Positions 72 to 20,919 of a DNA stretch of 64,000 nt are shown here, one piece after another. The notes under the pieces are model-generated. The model searched no databases and was not told the origin of the DNA. It saw only the letters and a program-made list of their open reading frames with translations. Both the position numbers and the translations under genes were made by a program. The DNA is from an uncultured Gemmatimonadota bacterium. GTDB lineage: Bacteria; JAAXHH01. Position 1 is the stretch's first letter, and every line of letters starts with the position of its first letter. The stretch lies in NCBI GenBank assembly GCA_951812955.1, contig OX638340.1, forward strand, positions 384,001 to 448,000. The letters are read 5' to 3'.

Positions 72-818
72 ATGGCCTACCAGGTAAGGCTCGAACACTT
101 CGAAGGGCCGCTGGACCTGTTGCTGTACCTGATCAGGGAACACGAGGTGGATATCTACGACATCCCCATCTCGCTGGTCACGCAGCAGTACCTTCAGTAC
201 CTCGAGCTGCTCAAATTACTCGATCTCGAAGTGGGCAGCGAGTACCTGCTCATGGCGGCGACGCTGTTGCGCATCAAGTCGAAGATGCTCCTGCCCCGCA
301 GGTCCGAAGAGGAGGAAGACGAGGCCGTCGACCCCCGGGAAGAACTCGTGCAGCGATTGCTGGAATACCGGCAGTTCAAGGAAGCGGCCGGTGTGCTAAA
401 CGCGCATCAGGACCGTAGTGCCGATGTGTTCTACCATCCGCCGGCGGAGAACGTGGACGAAGACCTGAACGGAGTGGAAACGCTCGATACCCGTCTGGTC
501 GGCAACCTGAATCTCTGGGACCTGCTCCAGGCTTTCAAATTCACGCTCGACCGTGCAAGAGACGATTTCGACCGCACGGTAGAGCGGGAGACCTTATCGA
601 TCGAGGACCGAATGGACGATATCCTGGACAATCTGAAGAAACAGAAGAACCTCTTTTTCAGTTCGCTGTTCCAGGAAGACCTCTCCCGCTCCTTTCTGAT
701 CGTTACATTCCTGGCCCTGCTGGAACTGATCCGGCAGAACAGGGTGGTTTTCGAGCAGACCGATACGCTTGGGGAGATCTGGCTGACCCTGTCCGATTCG
801 GTTAATCCATCGACGTGA
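72..818 (+). CDS. scpA: Segregation and condensation protein A (kleisin ScpA)
   Basis: 248 aa. N-terminal LDLLLYLI...VDIYDIPI...QYLQYL pattern typical of ScpA. ScpB follows 14 bp downstream. Confidence 0.85.
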   Translation: MAYQVRLEHFEGPLDLLLYLIREHEVDIYDIPISLVTQQYLQYLELLKLLDLEVGSEYLLMAATLLRIKSKMLLPRRSEEEEDEAVDPREELVQRLLEYRQFKEAAGVLNAHQDRSADVFYHPPAENVDEDLNGVETLDTRLVGNLNLWDLLQAFKFTLDRARDDFDRTVERETLSIEDRMDDILDNLKKQKNLFFSSLFQEDLSRSFLIVTFLALLELIRQNRVVFEQTDTLGEIWLTLSDSVNPST

Positions 819-831
819 GGAAACAGTCCGG

Positions 832-1506
832 ATGCAGAAGAAACTGATCATGGACCAGGCGCAGCTCGACGAATACCGCGCGATCACGGAAGCCGTGCTT
901 TTCGCGAGTGACGCGCCGCTTAGCCTGAATGAACTCAGCCGCATCATGGACGATGTGGGCGAGGAAATGATCGGAAATTGCATCGAAGCCCTGAACGAGC
1001 GGTATGCGCAGGGCGGCCACGGTTTCGAAATCCGGCTCGTGGCCAACGGTTACCAGTTCAGCAGCAAGGTGGCTTACGCAAAGTGGATACGCCGGCTCTA
1101 CCGGGGCAGGATTCCATCCCGCCTGACACAGGCGGCCCTGGAATGTCTGTCGATCGTCGCGTATAAGCAACCCATCAGCCGATCCGAGGTGGAGGCGATA
1201 AGGGGTGTGAATGTCGACGGCGTATTGCGTACGCTGCTGGACCGCAACCTCATTCGTATCGCTGGCCGTGGGGAAGGCGTCGGCCGGCCGATTCTCTATG
1301 CGACAACGAGTGATTTTCTCAGGTATTTCGGGCTGAACAAGCTTTCGGACCTGCCCAAGCTGGACGAATTGAACGAATTGTTGAAGGAACAGGATATCGT
1401 GCTGGACGAAGATGACGAAGAGCCCGACCCGTCGCTGTTCCCGGGACCTGGGATAACGGCTGGCGAAACGGATGGGAAGATTGTATCCAGAGATGAGACT
1501 GAATAG
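832..1506 (+). CDS. scpB: Segregation and condensation protein B
   Basis: 224 aa. Tandem winged-helix ScpB pattern (SRSEVEAIRGVNVDGVLRTLLDRNLIRIAGR...GRPILYATT). Adjacent to scpA. Confidence 0.85.
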   Translation: MQKKLIMDQAQLDEYRAITEAVLFASDAPLSLNELSRIMDDVGEEMIGNCIEALNERYAQGGHGFEIRLVANGYQFSSKVAYAKWIRRLYRGRIPSRLTQAALECLSIVAYKQPISRSEVEAIRGVNVDGVLRTLLDRNLIRIAGRGEGVGRPILYATTSDFLRYFGLNKLSDLPKLDELNELLKEQDIVLDEDDEEPDPSLFPGPGITAGETDGKIVSRDETE

Positions 1507-5847: not shown

Positions 5848-5896
5848 TAACCCCCGCGGATCAGCCTTCTCTGGCGTATATCCCCGCGGATCAGCC
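5838..5896. repeat. Tandem direct repeat (29 + 28 bp) duplicating the tRNA 3' end (att-like)
   Basis: ctctggcgtataacccccgcggatcagcc (5838-5866, begins inside the tRNA) and ctctggcgtatatccccgcggatcagcc (5869-5896). Confidence 0.8.
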
Positions 5897-6640
5897 CCGC
5901 CCTCCTGCCTGGTCATCATCGTCTTCTTCGCCAAGGTAAAGTTCGTTTTTCAGCAGATAACTTACCGTGGATGCATACCAACGGGTTTCCCTTGAAACCG
6001 CCGATGCACGTTTGGTGGGCACCTTCTGCTCATTGAGTTCATCCGCGATCTTGCGCAGGCTCCTGCCCTCGGCCCGCCAGTGCTTCACCTGCCTGATGAT
6101 CTCCTGCTCCCTTGAGTTGGGCACCAGCTGATTGCCGGACAGGTCGTATCCGTAAGGGATCGCGCCGTAAACGAACCGGTTGTTCTTTTTTTTCCGTATC
6201 CAGTTCTTCGTCCGCTCGGCGGGCAGGTCGCGGGCCAAACCGGCCAGCACGTTGAGCGTGCTCAGCACCACCTTCCCCTGTTCCTGATCGGTGCGGATGG
6301 ACATGCCATCGAGATCCAGCACGTGGCATATGATGCCTGCGCCGGACCAGGCCCCGAGGCAACCCGACATTTCGGCCGCTGACCTGAACAGCCGGTCGAG
6401 TCGCCAGATAACGATATGCTGGATGCCCTTCGATTCAACCGTGTTGGCCAGGTCCCGGCCACCCAGCCGATCCTCGAGCGGGATGAACGCCTCGACTCGG
6501 ATGTCGGGAATCACCAGCATGATGTCGAGGTCGTTTTCCGCGCAGTAGGACCTGAGCCGCTTCTCCTGGTCGGCCCTTCGAAAGGGATGCTTCCGGGTCT
6601 CCATCGGACCGACCCTGATATAGCATACCGCCTTTTTCAT
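5891..6640 (-). CDS. Truncated, degenerate serine recombinase (resolvase domain plus recombinase domain; catalytic Ser replaced by Gly)
   Basis: 249 aa. N-terminal MKKAVCYIRVGPME aligns to the serine-recombinase YxRVSTxxQ motif, but here it reads RVG-P. Resolvase-type LDRLFRS and recombinase-domain GAIPYGYDL are present; the zinc ribbon and coiled coil are missing. The stop codon lies inside att-like repeat B. Confidence 0.6.
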   Translation of the reverse strand: MKKAVCYIRVGPMETRKHPFRRADQEKRLRSYCAENDLDIMLVIPDIRVEAFIPLEDRLGGRDLANTVESKGIQHIVIWRLDRLFRSAAEMSGCLGAWSGAGIICHVLDLDGMSIRTDQEQGKVVLSTLNVLAGLARDLPAERTKNWIRKKKNNRFVYGAIPYGYDLSGNQLVPNSREQEIIRQVKHWRAEGRSLRKIADELNEQKVPTKRASAVSRETRWYASTVSYLLKNELYLGEEDDDDQAGGRG

Positions 6641-7388: not shown

Positions 7389-8648
7389 ATGAATTACGAG
7401 GTCATCGAGGCGCTGGCACAGATCATCCGTGAAAAGAACGTGGAGCGCGAAGTGGTCTGGGACACGGTGAAGACCGGCCTGATCACGGCGGCGAAGAAGC
7501 GATTCGGCACGGGCGACGACAACGTCGATGTGCGGATCGACGAAAAACTGGGAACGATCGAGATGGCTGCGGTCTGGGAGGTTGTGGACGAGGTGGAGGA
7601 TCCCGAGACGCAGATCAGCCTCTTAACGGCGAAGGGAATGGATCCGGAGGCGGAAATCGGGGGAAGAGTCGAACAGGCCCTGGCCTTCGAAGAGTTCGGC
7701 CGCAACGCGATACAGGCGGTGAAACAGGTCGTCGTGCAGCGCGTCCGGGAGGCGGAGCGGGAAAACGTCTATGAGATGTACAAAGACCGGGTCAACGAAA
7801 TCATAATCGGCAGCGTCCAGCAGGTGGACAGGGGCAATATCATCGTCAAGATAGAGCGCACCGAGGCGTTGCTTCCGTGGCGCGAGCAGATTCGGCGGGA
7901 AAGGTACCGGCAGGGTGAGACCATACGCGCCTATATTCTGGACGTGCAGAACGACATAAAGGGTCCCCAGGTCATTCTTTCGCGAAGCTGCGAGGCTTTC
8001 CTCGAACTCCTGTTCAGGATGGAAGTGCCGGAAATACACGAGGGCATTGTGGAAATCAAGGCATCTGCCCGGGAGCCCGGCGACCGGTCCAAGATCGCCG
8101 TCCTCTCACACGATGACCGGGTCGACGCGGTCGGGGCGTGCGTGGGTATGAAAGGCACCAGGGTACAGGCGGTCGTCCGAGAACTCAACAACGAACGTAT
8201 CGACATCGTGCCCTGGAGTAACGATCCGTCCTCCTTCGTGACCCAGGCGCTGCGTCCCGCCGAAGTAGCACAGGTCCAGATCCTGGACATCGAGAAAAAG
8301 GACATGCGCGTGGTCGTCGAGGATGACCAACTCTCGCTGGCCATAGGGAAGGCGGGCCAGAATGCCCGGCTCGCAGTAAAACTCACCGGATGGAATATCG
8401 ATCTGATCAAGCGTTCGGACCTCGAGAAGCAGCTCATCTCCGAGACATTCGGCTCGGATGACTCCGAATCGGAAGAAGCCGGATCGATTGCCGAAGTCGA
8501 CGGCATCTCGGAGAAGCTGGCTCAGAAGCTGGAAGACGCCGGCTACACGACGGTGGAGTCCCTTCAGCAAGCGACGGCCGACGAACTTCAGGCCATTTCA
8601 GGGATCGGCGGCGTGACGGCCGTCAAGATCATGACCGCGGTGCAGTAA
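7389..8648 (+). CDS. nusA: Transcription termination/antitermination factor NusA
   Basis: 419 aa with S1, KH and C-terminal HhH regions (VKIMTAVQ end). Conserved rimP-nusA-infB context. Confidence 0.9.
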   Translation: MNYEVIEALAQIIREKNVEREVVWDTVKTGLITAAKKRFGTGDDNVDVRIDEKLGTIEMAAVWEVVDEVEDPETQISLLTAKGMDPEAEIGGRVEQALAFEEFGRNAIQAVKQVVVQRVREAERENVYEMYKDRVNEIIIGSVQQVDRGNIIVKIERTEALLPWREQIRRERYRQGETIRAYILDVQNDIKGPQVILSRSCEAFLELLFRMEVPEIHEGIVEIKASAREPGDRSKIAVLSHDDRVDAVGACVGMKGTRVQAVVRELNNERIDIVPWSNDPSSFVTQALRPAEVAQVQILDIEKKDMRVVVEDDQLSLAIGKAGQNARLAVKLTGWNIDLIKRSDLEKQLISETFGSDDSESEEAGSIAEVDGISEKLAQKLEDAGYTTVESLQQATADELQAISGIGGVTAVKIMTAVQ

Positions 8649-17682: not shown

Positions 17683-19131
17683 ATGATCCAGATCAAAGAA
17701 ATCGACCTCCGCATCCAGAACATGCGCACCCGCATGCCCTTCAAATTTGGCATATCGACCATGACGGCCGTGCCGCACCTGGTGCTTCGCATGGAACTGG
17801 AAGTGAACGGACGCACCGGCAGCGGATATTCCGCGGATCACCTGCCGCCGAAGTGGTTCACGAAGAACCCGGAGACGTCCCTCGAGGACGAAGTAGGGGA
17901 CATGATCTCCGTTATCCGCCACGCAAGCGACGCCGCGCTGGCCCTGGGACCCGCGCCCGATCTGTTCACCCTCTGGCTCGAACTCTACCAGGCCCAGAAG
18001 ATCTGGGGCAACGGGAGAGGTTTTGCGCCACTCCTGTGGGGCCTGGGAAACAGCCTGGTGGAAAGGGCCATGATCGAGGCTTTCTGCCGCATACAGGGCA
18101 CGGATTTCGGTAAAGCCGTGCGATCAAACGCCTTCGGCATTCGTTTCGATGCGTTCAATAGCCGTTTGAAGGGCCTGGCGCCCGCCGATGTGTTGCCCGG
18201 CTCCCCGATCACAGTCACCAACGTGCGCCATACCGTAGGGCTGGGAGACCCCCTGACCACGCAGGATATACCGCCGGAGGAGCTTTGCAACGACGGGCTG
18301 CCCCAGTCGCTGGACGAAGTCATCGACACCTATGGCATAACGTACTTCAAGATCAAGCTGTTCGGGGATGTAGCACGGGATATAGATCGCCTGAAGCAGA
18401 CGGCCAGTATCATCGACGGGCGATTGAACCAGTATGCGTTCACGCTGGACGGCAATGAAAACTACGGAGACATGGAAACGTTCCGGTCCTTCTGGGAATC
18501 ACTGCGGGCCGACCGTAATCTGGCAGGATTCCTCGGGCGGCTAATCTGCATCGAGCAGCCATTGCATCGCGATATAGCGCTGGATAAAGCACTCAGTGAG
18601 CATTTCGAGGCATGGCCTGACAGGCCACCATTCATTATCGACGAATCCGATGGGGACATCGGCGACCTGGAACGGGCCGTCGATATCGGTTACGCGGGTA
18701 CAAGTTACAAGAACTGTAAAGGAGTGTTCAAAGGGCTGTCCAACGCAGCTTATCTCGAGTACCTGGCAAGACAGCATCCGGACCGCCGGTACGTACTGAC
18801 GAGCGAAGACCTGTCCAACATCGGGCCGATCGCTCTTGCGCAGGACCTCGCAGTATTGGCCACATTAGGGGTTGACCACACAGAGCGGAACAGCCACCAT
18901 TACTTCAGAGGATTGACGACCTGGCCCCGCAAGATCCAGGAACAGATGCGATTATGTCATCCGGATCTGTTCAGTGTGCACGAAGAAGGTTTCACATGCA
19001 TGCACATCGAACAGGGTCGGATCAGTCTGGAGAGCGTAACGAAAAGTCCCTTCGGGGTAGGATTCGAATTCGACAGTTCAAAGCTTACCCCGCTGGATGA
19101 CTGGGAATATGCTACGCTGGATGTTGAATAA
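17683..19131 (+). CDS. Enolase-superfamily (MR/MLE-like) protein, substrate unknown
   Basis: Capping-domain pattern IKEIDLRIQNMRTRMPFKFGISTMTAVPHLVLRMELEVNGRTGSG. Barrel motifs KIKLFGD (KxK), LDGNENYG, IEQPL, IDESDG as metal ligands. Unusually long at 482 aa. Confidence 0.6.
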   Translation: MIQIKEIDLRIQNMRTRMPFKFGISTMTAVPHLVLRMELEVNGRTGSGYSADHLPPKWFTKNPETSLEDEVGDMISVIRHASDAALALGPAPDLFTLWLELYQAQKIWGNGRGFAPLLWGLGNSLVERAMIEAFCRIQGTDFGKAVRSNAFGIRFDAFNSRLKGLAPADVLPGSPITVTNVRHTVGLGDPLTTQDIPPEELCNDGLPQSLDEVIDTYGITYFKIKLFGDVARDIDRLKQTASIIDGRLNQYAFTLDGNENYGDMETFRSFWESLRADRNLAGFLGRLICIEQPLHRDIALDKALSEHFEAWPDRPPFIIDESDGDIGDLERAVDIGYAGTSYKNCKGVFKGLSNAAYLEYLARQHPDRRYVLTSEDLSNIGPIALAQDLAVLATLGVDHTERNSHHYFRGLTTWPRKIQEQMRLCHPDLFSVHEEGFTCMHIEQGRISLESVTKSPFGVGFEFDSSKLTPLDDWEYATLDVE

Positions 19132-19189
19132 CAAGCGTGTGAGTGATGTTCGACATTTTGGAATTTTCATCGCGCGGAGAATTTACACC

Positions 19190-19780
19190 GAACCGGACGT
19201 ACAAATAGAAAGTAAATTGTACGCTTTCTGGAGCAAAACATACAGACAGAGTATTCATTGTACATTTGAAGCAGACCGATGTACAAATCATATAACAATT
19301 GTACAAATATACAGAAACGCTATGAAAGCACGCGAAATGAGCCTTCGGGCAGAGATCGATAAGAAAATCCGGCCGGTCACGATGAGCTCGCGGCATCAAT
19401 TAGTACGTTTCGGAACCGAAAATCGGGATTTCGAGGGTAGTTTCGACCCACCCCCTGACCCTCCAGGGACCGGATCAGAGCACATATAGATTTACATAAT
19501 ATCTATTATGCGAAGTAGGGATTTAGAGGGGTATACGAGGGATTTTGGGTCCGGAGACTATAAATCAGCTCAGAATAGACTTTCGAGAGGTAATGTACAA
19601 AAGAAAGATTATTTGTACGAACGCGGTAAATCTGAATACAAAAGAGGTAATGTTTGTACGAATGGGTGAATAGCATGTACAGAGATAGATAGAATAGTAC
19701 AGTGATACTAGTACAAATATAAAGATGGTTGTACAAGTTTGTTGAGATATCGTACTAAGAATAGATGTATTGTACGCAGG
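19190..19780. repeat. Phased array of ~15 TTGTACAA-like palindromic motifs in an AT-rich ORF-free island
   Basis: GTAC cores at 19198, 19220, 19261, 19283, 19302, 19402, 19597, 19615, 19658, 19679, 19700, 19713, 19732, 19755 and 19773. Perfect TTGTACAA at 19298-19305 and 19728-19735. Spacings are mostly 18-23 bp or 41-43 bp. Confidence 0.7.
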
Positions 19781-19926
19781 GTTATCTTAATAAAAATCTT
19801 AATTTGTATTTTTCGTGGCATGACAAATTAAAATCGAAAGATGTAAATGAAACAAACCTCGTTTCTTCAGAATGCAACCTCCCGTTCAATCCAGCATTCC
19901 AATCACCAATTTCCAGAGTAAATTCC

Positions 19927-20919
19927 TTGCGGTCACAACGACTGGTCAACACTGATTTCCGAAAGATAATACTGGAAGAGTATGAGATTCCTTCCGTGCC
20001 GGATGACAGTGTACTCGTACAAAACGAATATACTGCTGTCAGCGTAGGCACTGAAGTCTACAATTATATACATGGGTGTGAACCGGGCGGTGAGCCTCGA
20101 TTCCCCAGGAACACGGGCTATTGCAACGCAGGTGTAGCGCTGAAGGTTGGTAGGGACGTGCAGGGGATTGTACCGGGGGATCGTGTCGCCGGCCAGGGAA
20201 ACCACGCAAGTCATTCCATAATGTCGGGCTTGATCAGCAAGGTGCCGGCGAACGTATCGTCCAGGGCGGCGGCGTTCATGGTGATGTGTGCGACCTCATT
20301 GCATGGTCACCGCGTTGCCCGTCCCGAGCTGGGCGAGGCCGTCGTAGTGACCGGCATGGGCATCGTCGGTCAATTGGCTGCATCCTTTGCCCGGCTGAGC
20401 GGCGCTGTACCCGTCATTGGCGTGGATTTGGACGACTTTCGCCTTCAAAAAGCCCGTGAACGCGGGGTCGACGTGTGTATCAACCCGGAAAAGGAACCTG
20501 ATGTGGCTGAGGCGGTGCGCCGGTACTGTGCGGCAGACGGTGCTGACTTGGTCATCGAAGCGACCGGGGTACCCTCCGTGTATCCAATGGCACTGACCCT
20601 GCCGAGACTCGGCGGCCGTTTGCTCGCCCTCGGTTCGCCGCGCGGATCGGTGGAAGTGAGCTTTTTCGCCGAGGTCCATCTGCGCGAGGTCACGATCCTG
20701 GGCGCCCACCAGCCCAAAACACCTGATGAGGCTGACCTGTACTATCCCTGGAGCAAGCGAAGGGACCGCGACCTGGTCCTCCGGCTCATGGGTGAAGGAA
20801 AACTGCCGATCGAAGACCTGATTACTCACGAAGCAAATCCCGCCGATTGCCAGTCCGTTTACGACATGCTTGCGGATCGTCCCAGGGATGTGCTTGGGGT
20901 GGTGTTCAGGTGGGTGTGA
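19927..20919 (+). CDS. MDR-superfamily (Zn-ADH-like) oxidoreductase
   Basis: ILEEYEIPSVPDDSVLVQNEYTAVSVGTE catalytic-domain start. Rossmann GxGxxG (VTGMGIVGQLAA). Start uncertain: TTG 19927, or the track ATG 19765 within AT-rich sequence. Confidence 0.7.
   Translation: MRSQRLVNTDFRKIILEEYEIPSVPDDSVLVQNEYTAVSVGTEVYNYIHGCEPGGEPRFPRNTGYCNAGVALKVGRDVQGIVPGDRVAGQGNHASHSIMSGLISKVPANVSSRAAAFMVMCATSLHGHRVARPELGEAVVVTGMGIVGQLAASFARLSGAVPVIGVDLDDFRLQKARERGVDVCINPEKEPDVAEAVRRYCAADGADLVIEATGVPSVYPMALTLPRLGGRLLALGSPRGSVEVSFFAEVHLREVTILGAHQPKTPDEADLYYPWSKRRDRDLVLRLMGEGKLPIEDLITHEANPADCQSVYDMLADRPRDVLGVVFRWV

Follow-up and report, generated by a model that had tools for sequence, protein, structure and literature searches.

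A probable chromosomal dif locus set between phased arrays of a 24-bp palindrome in sponge- and coral-associated Latescibacterota

Characterised chromosomal dif sites are described as bare 28-bp cores under the control of FtsK. The Xer sites of small plasmids, cer and psi, carry in addition accessory DNA, which lies on the XerC side of the core only; PepA, one of the proteins concerned, has no binding consensus. In cer a 30-bp Xer core is joined to ~180 bp of accessory DNA that is bound by host architectural proteins and sets the geometry of the synapse, and in the cer/psi systems ArgR/PepA or ArcA/PepA interwrap two such sites and enforce resolution (PMC5357621). Here we analyse an AT-rich intergenic island in a 64-kb stretch of DNA from an uncultured Gemmatimonadota bacterium (contig OX638340.1, positions 384,001 to 448,000; the whole stretch is hereafter termed the window), in which a dif-like XerC/XerD site is bracketed by eight phased copies of a 24-bp palindrome. 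We found such a layout described only for small plasmids (cer, psi). An earlier note on this DNA had drawn attention to the repeats; it overlooked dif, the decisive element of the core of the island and the one relative to which the arrays are positioned.

The 28-bp site (Table 1) has a 6-bp centre with an arm of 11 bp on each side; the seven arm positions nearest the centre form a perfect inverted repeat (CATAATA/TATTATG), and on the plus strand the XerD arm lies to the left and the XerC arm to the right. It is the top match in the window for both of the experimentally verified reference sites, those of B. subtilis (ACTTCCTAGAATATATATTATGTAAACT) and E. coli (GGTGCGCATAATGTATATTATGTTAAAT) (Kono et al. 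2011, PMC3025954), with which it agrees at 22 and 20 of 28 positions, respectively, the references agreeing with each other at 19 of 28. Sites predicted in related phyla (Chlorobium, TTGTTGTATAATATATATTATGTAAACT; Gemmatimonas, AATGCGTATAATACATGTTATGTAAACT) have the XerD arm TTATGTAAA in common with the window site, and the Gemmatimonas prediction matches it at 21 of 28 positions. In its length, its 11-bp arms and 6-bp centre, its XerD arm and its intergenic position the site is thus like the chromosomal dif of E. coli and B. subtilis; it is unlike them in that eight phased palindromes and two further conserved blocks bracket the core.

Species-representative genomes were scanned with the enolase-like protein encoded beside the island, which yielded 20 loci at 78–95% amino-acid identity, all in metagenome-assembled genomes labelled Latescibacterota, mislabelled Gemmatimonadetes, or named simply "bacterium". 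The samples of several relatives are named sponge or coral, and some of the genomes are closed (chromosomes of 3.5–3.9 Mb). No exact match to the flanking protein is on record in public assemblies. The island is present at the same locus in 19 of the 20, the contig of the twentieth ending before it, with the flanking protein 78–93% identical in L002–L020. In each of these loci there is a single dif copy, always in the same orientation, as there is in the window, and the 28-mer is invariant save in L007, where the central dinucleotide differs, and in L009, where a single arm base does; the alignment shows an invariant segment of ~31 nt, 19489–19520. Judged by its sequence, 19489–19516 is a canonical XerC/XerD dif-like site, invariant in the clade, and the island is most likely the chromosomal dimer-resolution (dif) locus. 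The module as a whole is a property of the sponge/coral-associated Latescibacterota clade, in 19 species, contrary to the possibility considered in the earlier note that the island might be unconserved in relatives.

If the site is dif, the locus would be expected to lie at the replication terminus. GC skew in the window, including gene-wise GC skew and skew at third codon positions (GC3), tracks gene strand, and counts of skewed oligomers of the FtsK-orienting polar sequence (KOPS) type are confounded by gene orientation. The genes to the left of the island are nearly all on the plus strand, an arrangement that would suit a terminus but does not decide the matter. The window genes include no xerC, xerD or ftsK. 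A replication origin was also considered for this locus and rejected, since it has neither a DnaA box nor a skew switch and is flanked on either side by plus-strand genes.

The GTAC cores of the island pair exactly 20 bp apart, and an alignment of the sites shows that their inner flanks alone are conserved. The repeat unit is a 24-bp palindrome, Y-GTACAAA-N10-TTTGTAC-R, so that the palindromy reported in the earlier note stands and its 8-bp unit size does not. Three such units lie on the XerD side of dif and five on the XerC side, the latter at steps of 41, 41, 34 and 41 bp. A position weight matrix (PWM) made from the eight scores them at 20–33 over the 64 kb, the next-best match reaching 5.5, and nothing comparable is found outside the island. 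Between species, orthologous slots are 89% identical in the half-sites, 43% in the spacers and 33%, i.e. about random, in the linkers; half-sites stay in register throughout the alignment, the intervening DNA varies freely, and non-motif DNA is saturated with substitutions. The logo of 142 units reads Y-GTACAAA-(A/T-rich, C-poor N10)-(W)TTGTAC-R, with an information content of 1.0–2.0 bits at YGTACAAA and TTGTACR and ~0 in the linkers, and the top strand of the unit spacers in the right array is rich in purines (A 0.50, G 0.21, C 0.05). When units were called at >= 11 of 14 half-site matches, 157 were counted within the islands, and the 312 kb of flanking DNA yielded none, so units are confined to the island. 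The difference between half-site and linker identity shows that the eight-unit array is under strong selection, which has kept the half-sites and their spacing. Such palindromic units are presumably the sites of a dimeric DNA-binding protein, in keeping with the phased array for a dimer envisaged in the earlier note.

In composition, too, the island stands apart from its surroundings. Its GC content is 39.3% (19135–19930), with a minimum of 31.5% at 19600–19799, against 59.5% for the window; its AT-richness was thus correctly noted before, though its GC content was then put at ~35%. GTAC occurs 15 times in 19135–19930 where 2.5 ± 1.4 are expected (maximum 9 in 2000 dinucleotide-preserving shuffles), which bears out the ~15 against 2–3 first reported, and TGTAC ten times against 0.53 in the same shuffles. 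Over the 64 kb there is no enrichment, 222 GTAC being observed and ~232 calculated from base composition, and the cluster is therefore local rather than the product of a genome-wide bias; an equal frequency beyond the island, which the earlier note had weighed as an objection, is seen neither in these counts nor in the unit-free 312 kb of flanks. Successive cores are 20 or 21 bp apart, or 41 bp apart over a degenerate ATAC (19240, 19636), with one 14-bp step (19697 to 19711). The two clusters originally described remain, with these steps in place of the spacings of 18–23 or 41–43 bp. The perfect palindrome TTGTACAA starts at 19299 and 19729, one base from the coordinates first given for the two sites (19298 and 19728), and has a third copy elsewhere in the window. 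Tandem Repeats Finder returned nothing for the island, the repeats being too degenerate outside the half-sites, and a blastn search of plasmid and phage collections with the island as query gave no match. The earlier view that the island holds no credible open reading frame (ORF) is confirmed: all its ORFs are short, and the sole plausible one, 19322–19489, was rejected as protein-coding, its frame switching between species within the conserved block and its indels not being multiples of three.

Table 1. Coordinates, in the window, of the island, its component elements and the two adjoining genes
Feature	Position	Strand	Sequence or description	Basis
Whole intergenic island	19132–19926		between enolase-superfamily-like gene and MDR (medium-chain dehydrogenase/reductase)/zinc-type dehydrogenase gene	ORF list and Pfam
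Left array, XerD-arm side	19199–19304		three units: 19199–19222, 19240–19263, 19281–19304; 41-bp steps	PWM and slot analysis
Conserved block, XerD side of dif	19433–19475		GAGGGTAGTTTCGACCCACCCCCTGACCCTCC then ACCGGAT	near-invariant columns, 18–20-species alignments
dif site (28 bp)	19489–19516	-	ACTTCGCATAA-TAGATA-TTATGTAAATC	
XerD arm of dif	19489–19499		TTATGTAAATC	
Central region of dif	19500–19505		TAGATA	
XerC arm of dif	19506–19516		ACTTCGCATAA	
Conserved G-tract block, XerC side of dif	19517–19566		AGGGATTTAGAGGGGTATACGAGGGATTTTGGG then ACTATAAATC	species alignments
Right array, XerC-arm side	19595–19775		five units: 19595–19618, 19636–19659, 19677–19700, 19711–19734, 19752–19775	PWM and slot analysis
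GTAC cores	19199, 19219, 19260, 19281, 19301, 19403, 19595, 19615, 19656, 19677, 19697, 19711, 19731, 19752, 19772			
Enolase-superfamily-like gene	17683–19131	+	left neighbour of island	
MDR/zinc-type dehydrogenase gene	19927–20919	+	right neighbour of island; probable TTG start 19927	

The arrays are held in register with dif. Taking as the position of a unit its start relative to the first T of TTTACA, which equals the centre-to-centre distance from dif, the XerD-side units lie at -292, -251 and -210 in 15 of 19 species and the XerC-side units occupy conserved slots at +104, +145, +186, +221 and +262, positions being constant to ~1 bp in most species. The exceptions in the distance from the left array to dif are L007 (+10 bp), L012 (-11), L015 (-11/-12) and L016 (+9), i.e. 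four shifts of about one helical turn each, to which single indels in the alignment correspond. The spacing within units is always 20 bp, in agreement with the earlier proposal that the sites fall on one face of the DNA; the 34-bp step of the right array resets the phase drift accumulated over consecutive 41-bp steps, and the innermost units of the two arrays are 314 bp, or ~30 turns, apart. All units thus share with dif approximately one face of the helix.

Of the known mechanisms, the control exerted by accessory sequences at cer and psi comes nearest. As in those sites, array DNA lies immediately beside the Xer core (the right array lies 78–259 bp away from the XerC arm), with its spacing constrained by helical phase. 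There are also clear differences: no ARG box is found here at <= 2 mismatches and the unit motif is unrelated to the ArgR and ArcA sites, the setting is chromosomal and not that of a plasmid, and the central region is of 6 bp where that of cer is of 8 bp. Our preferred reading, though by no means a secure one, sees in the island the chromosomal dif locus and in its phased arrays accessory or architectural sites for Xer recombination of the cer/psi kind. In such a mechanism the 28-bp XerC/XerD site would be embedded in a conserved platform of ~600 bp, with three palindromes on the XerD and five on the XerC side, and one sequence-specific protein would occupy each palindrome as a dimer or as a dimer of dimers. 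Since the units share roughly the helical face of dif, they could give rise to a nucleoprotein complex, looped or wrapped, with the Xer core as part of it, and this complex might help to synapse sister dif sites and/or restrict or activate Xer strand exchange; we infer that it would in this way control Xer recombination. A broader proposal, for which the balance tips to the other side and which we put forward more tentatively, is that of a clade-specific dif-organising system, wherein a putative protein on the eight phased palindromes would govern chromosome-dimer resolution or the handling of sister termini, as the chromosomal equivalent of accessory-factor control in plasmids and adding to or replacing the logic of FtsK/KOPS or MatP/matS, and wherein a tailed phage would copy the module to exploit the host Xer machinery.

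Between dif and the arrays lie the two further conserved blocks (Table 1), both non-coding and rich in G-tracts, which may bind a second factor. The sequence GGGATTTnGAGGG is present twice, at 19420–19437 and 19513–19530. The right block fits a G-quadruplex (G4) motif in the window, the G-tracts being broken in some species, e.g. L004. In the left block the alignments contain no compensatory changes, and a tRNA remnant, considered for the same block, was rejected on a negative ARAGORN result. L016, the most divergent relative, has ~300 bp of GC-richer DNA in place of the right block (7925–8270 of its locus), which carries repeated ACGAACCnACGCA; its right array stands at +402/+444 from dif, and its left array has a fourth unit.

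A combination of a dif-like site with the units recurs in a phage. A search of 2.9 million viral contigs for the two-unit pattern returned 12 matches, mostly simple repeats, and on the 44-kb contig IMGVR_UViG_3300030397_000609 (rebuilt to 42 of 44 kb) we find a dif-like site, AGTTTACATAA-TACTTA-TTATACGTAGT, which matches the window site at 22 of 28 positions and whose central region is identical to that of the host locus L007. On its XerC side the unit GTACAAAGGTATATAGATGTGTAC follows 55 bp on, with GTACAAAGGTATATAGCCTTGTAC 40 bp past the start of that unit; 5 kb away from the dif-like site there is a third unit, which is perfect (GTACAAAGGTGTATAGTTTTGTAC; contig 8476–8499), and the spacer GGTrTATAG is common to all three. 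A chance pairing of dif-like site and units here is very unlikely. The dif-like site has phage genes to either side: upstream there is one for a replication initiator, and downstream there are genes for an HNH protein, a methyltransferase-like protein, TerL and a major head protein, a portal protein being also present on the contig. No integrase was detected in 33 phage ORFs by Pfam and PHROGs, a scan that excluded smaller ORFs and the last 2.2 kb. In possessing a dif-like site and, among the 33 ORFs tested, no integrase, the contig resembles integrative mobile elements exploiting Xer (IMEX), which insert at dif by means of the XerCD of their host, and Xer-resolved replicons; it is unlike them in being a tailed phage (HNH, TerL, portal, major capsid protein) with the 24-bp units of the host clade, and we found no report of such an IMEX.

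Several features of this contig may be set down beside the pairing. Just upstream of the dif-like site are two small ORFs resembling ribbon-helix-helix (RHH) proteins (L212:12009–12233 and L212:12327–12653) and a 186-aa ORF containing a helix-turn-helix (HTH), which are possible binders of the units; both RHH-like ORFs are orphans, the 108-aa RHH-like protein has no homologue among 5.8 billion proteins, and the phage ORFs have none in the window or the host loci sequences. After the GTACAAAGGTGTATAGTTTTGTAC unit come a stem-loop and a stretch resembling a promoter, and then an orphan ORF of 164 aa; a TROVE-domain (Ro60-like) protein is encoded at the left end of the contig (L212:3–1403, minus strand). 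A generic dif-type core, TTTACATAATANNTATTATNCG, is present in 58 viral contigs, and units occur in IMGVR_UViG_3300030397_000609 alone amongst them; several groups within the 58 have identical dif-type sites, and all may be regarded as candidate Xer-exploiting phages or elements. A looser viral scan (dif plus one unit) added two matches only, both due to chance in AT-rich coding DNA. For the two-unit pattern in metagenomes, the matches listed were mainly satellite repeats of 10 or 20 bp and uninformative; these satellite-like repeats contain GTACA, come in many cases from contigs sharing the prefix Ga01233xx, and are unrelated to the island.

A number of observations weigh against the view that the arrays are accessory sites for Xer recombination. 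Unlike those of cer and psi, they stand on both sides of the core. In L016 the ~300-bp replacement between dif and the right array displaces that array and in L002 the right array is eroded, from which it follows that its exact position is not indispensable. The phage support comes from one contig, the units of which, 80 and 120 bp from the centre of its dif-like site, have a phase unlike that in the host, and the distance of its third unit from that site suggests that the protein may have roles unrelated to Xer. The partner regulator or ParB-like protein that the earlier note proposed to look for was not found among the proteins of the 64-kb window; there is no candidate binder in the window and no DNA-binding candidate beside the host island.

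The main rival explanation is that the array protein joins sister dif regions or anchors them to the septum, in the manner of MatP/matS or of a centromere, and takes no part in Xer catalysis. We consider this unlikely, whilst recognising that the centromere-like reading of the earlier note survives in it as a live, if not the best-supported, interpretation. The arrays are packed tightly at dif and absent from the flanks, as a tether would have them, and palindromic sites suit a bridging oligomer. The phage also fits, with its replication initiator, its dispersed third unit and no integrase in the 33 ORFs tested; plasmid-prophages have dispersed centromere sites, and the layout of the phage units resembles these. 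Amongst plasmid centromeres, sopC of F is made of tandem ~41–43-bp units, each with a short inverted repeat, and parC of R1 of two repeat clusters around a core. The island shares unit steps of ~41 bp and inverted repeats with the former and the two clusters around a core with the latter, and it is unlike both in having no partition genes nearby, in having as its core an Xer site and not a promoter, and in being a chromosomal housekeeping locus; there is no parS consensus in the island and no member of the ParA or ParB families among the window proteins.

Terminus-binding proteins provide precedents for a tether. The matS sites, which belong to the Ter macrodomain of enterobacteria, are spread over ~800 kb, and none of these 13-bp sequences (GTGACRNYGTCAC) is found in the island at <= 2 mismatches. 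As with MatP/matS and ZapT, the terminus/dif region would be marked here by a sequence-specific protein acting through palindromic sites; ZapT of Caulobacter has ~10 sites over 0.9 Mb, with no motif (PMC7188993). Both are thus scattered over hundreds of kb, in contrast to the eight 24-bp sites within ~600 bp found here and the 312 kb of flanks without any. No par or MatP-like gene is located nearby. Moreover, a tether has no obvious need for spacing kept to ~1 bp, or for indels of one helical turn, with respect to the dif core.

Less likely than a tether, and in our view improbable, is that the units are transcription-factor operators for neighbouring genes (the MDR dehydrogenase or an unannotated transcript) and adjoin dif incidentally, the two elements merely occupying one large intergenic region. 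The dehydrogenase gene does have the right array upstream of it, each of the three phage units is intergenic and precedes a plus-strand gene, and weak sigma-70-like matches overlap units. Eight operators for one promoter would nevertheless be unusual, and the left array is downstream of a gene end and 600 bp from the next start; in L002, moreover, it is intact though alignment to the dehydrogenase gene is lost beyond the island. Promoter control would leave unexplained both the phase-preserving indels between the left array and dif and the recurrence of dif with units in a phage.

More doubtful still is a replication fork trap, in which the arrays would be Ter-like sites for a Tus- or RTP-like terminator and forks would meet at dif. 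Two clusters do bracket dif, and nearly every gene left of the island runs in the direction that a fork heading towards it would take. The units, however, show two-fold symmetry and keep one orientation from array to array, without the mirror polarity of Tus or RTP sites, a phage would not need a trap beside its Xer site, and no terminator-protein gene is adjacent.

The remaining readings, which are those of the earlier note, are essentially excluded: an iteron-type plasmid or phage origin would account for an AT-rich island of repeated motifs phased at 20–21 bp, yet the units are inverted and not direct, the window lacks a rep gene, and DnaA boxes are absent at <= 1 mismatch; a horizontally acquired module is at odds with vertical conservation at the same housekeeping locus in 19 species; and a hairpin or small-RNA element in the core, suggested by a GCC-TTCG-GGC hairpin that is indeed present in the window (~19343–19352), is contradicted by its lack of conservation (most relatives carry CCCGCGAAC instead), by RNAalifold on the core (compensatory pairs 0/21 on the plus and 1/26 on the minus strand) and by Rfam, which gave chance-level matches alone (best E-value 5.3). 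The nucleoid silencer of the earlier note is not supported.

The island is set in a block of housekeeping genes. Upstream are scpA, scpB, an rluB-like gene, rpsA, a radical-SAM MiaB-like gene, rimP-nusA-infB, ribF, pnp, an M16 peptidase gene, dut and the enolase-superfamily-like gene; downstream are the zinc-type dehydrogenase, a MoaD-like ORF (named from its sequence), an OmpA-family protein, an RraA-like protein and formiminotransferase. In the cross-species alignment conservation picks up again at TTGCG (19927), where the dehydrogenase gene probably begins. The genes scpA and scpB, for the kleisin and accessory subunits of the SMC condensin, occupy window positions 72–1506, ~18 kb from the dif island. 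The sole minus-strand gene of this otherwise plus-strand block (MiaB-like gene, then rimP-nusA-infB) encodes a serine recombinase of 249 aa (5891–6640) with Resolvase and Recombinase domains; the latter matches about half of its model, so that the protein looks truncated, and the gene may be the remnant of a mobile element. Locus L010 has an extra segment between the stop of the enolase-like gene and the left array (~7480–7660), with a tandem duplication of ggaatcagttcattccctgggatcg (x2).

Were the interpretation of the arrays as accessory sites to prove correct, some bacteria would control dimer resolution or the handling of their termini through a dedicated nucleoprotein architecture otherwise described only for small plasmids. 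The 24-bp unit can serve as bait for its predicted binding protein, and the dif island marks, at the level of sequence, where the terminus probably lies in a symbiont phylum that has not been cultivated. The phage contig points to a possible new phage strategy, in that a tailed phage may use the Xer system of its host, a use known mainly from filamentous phages.

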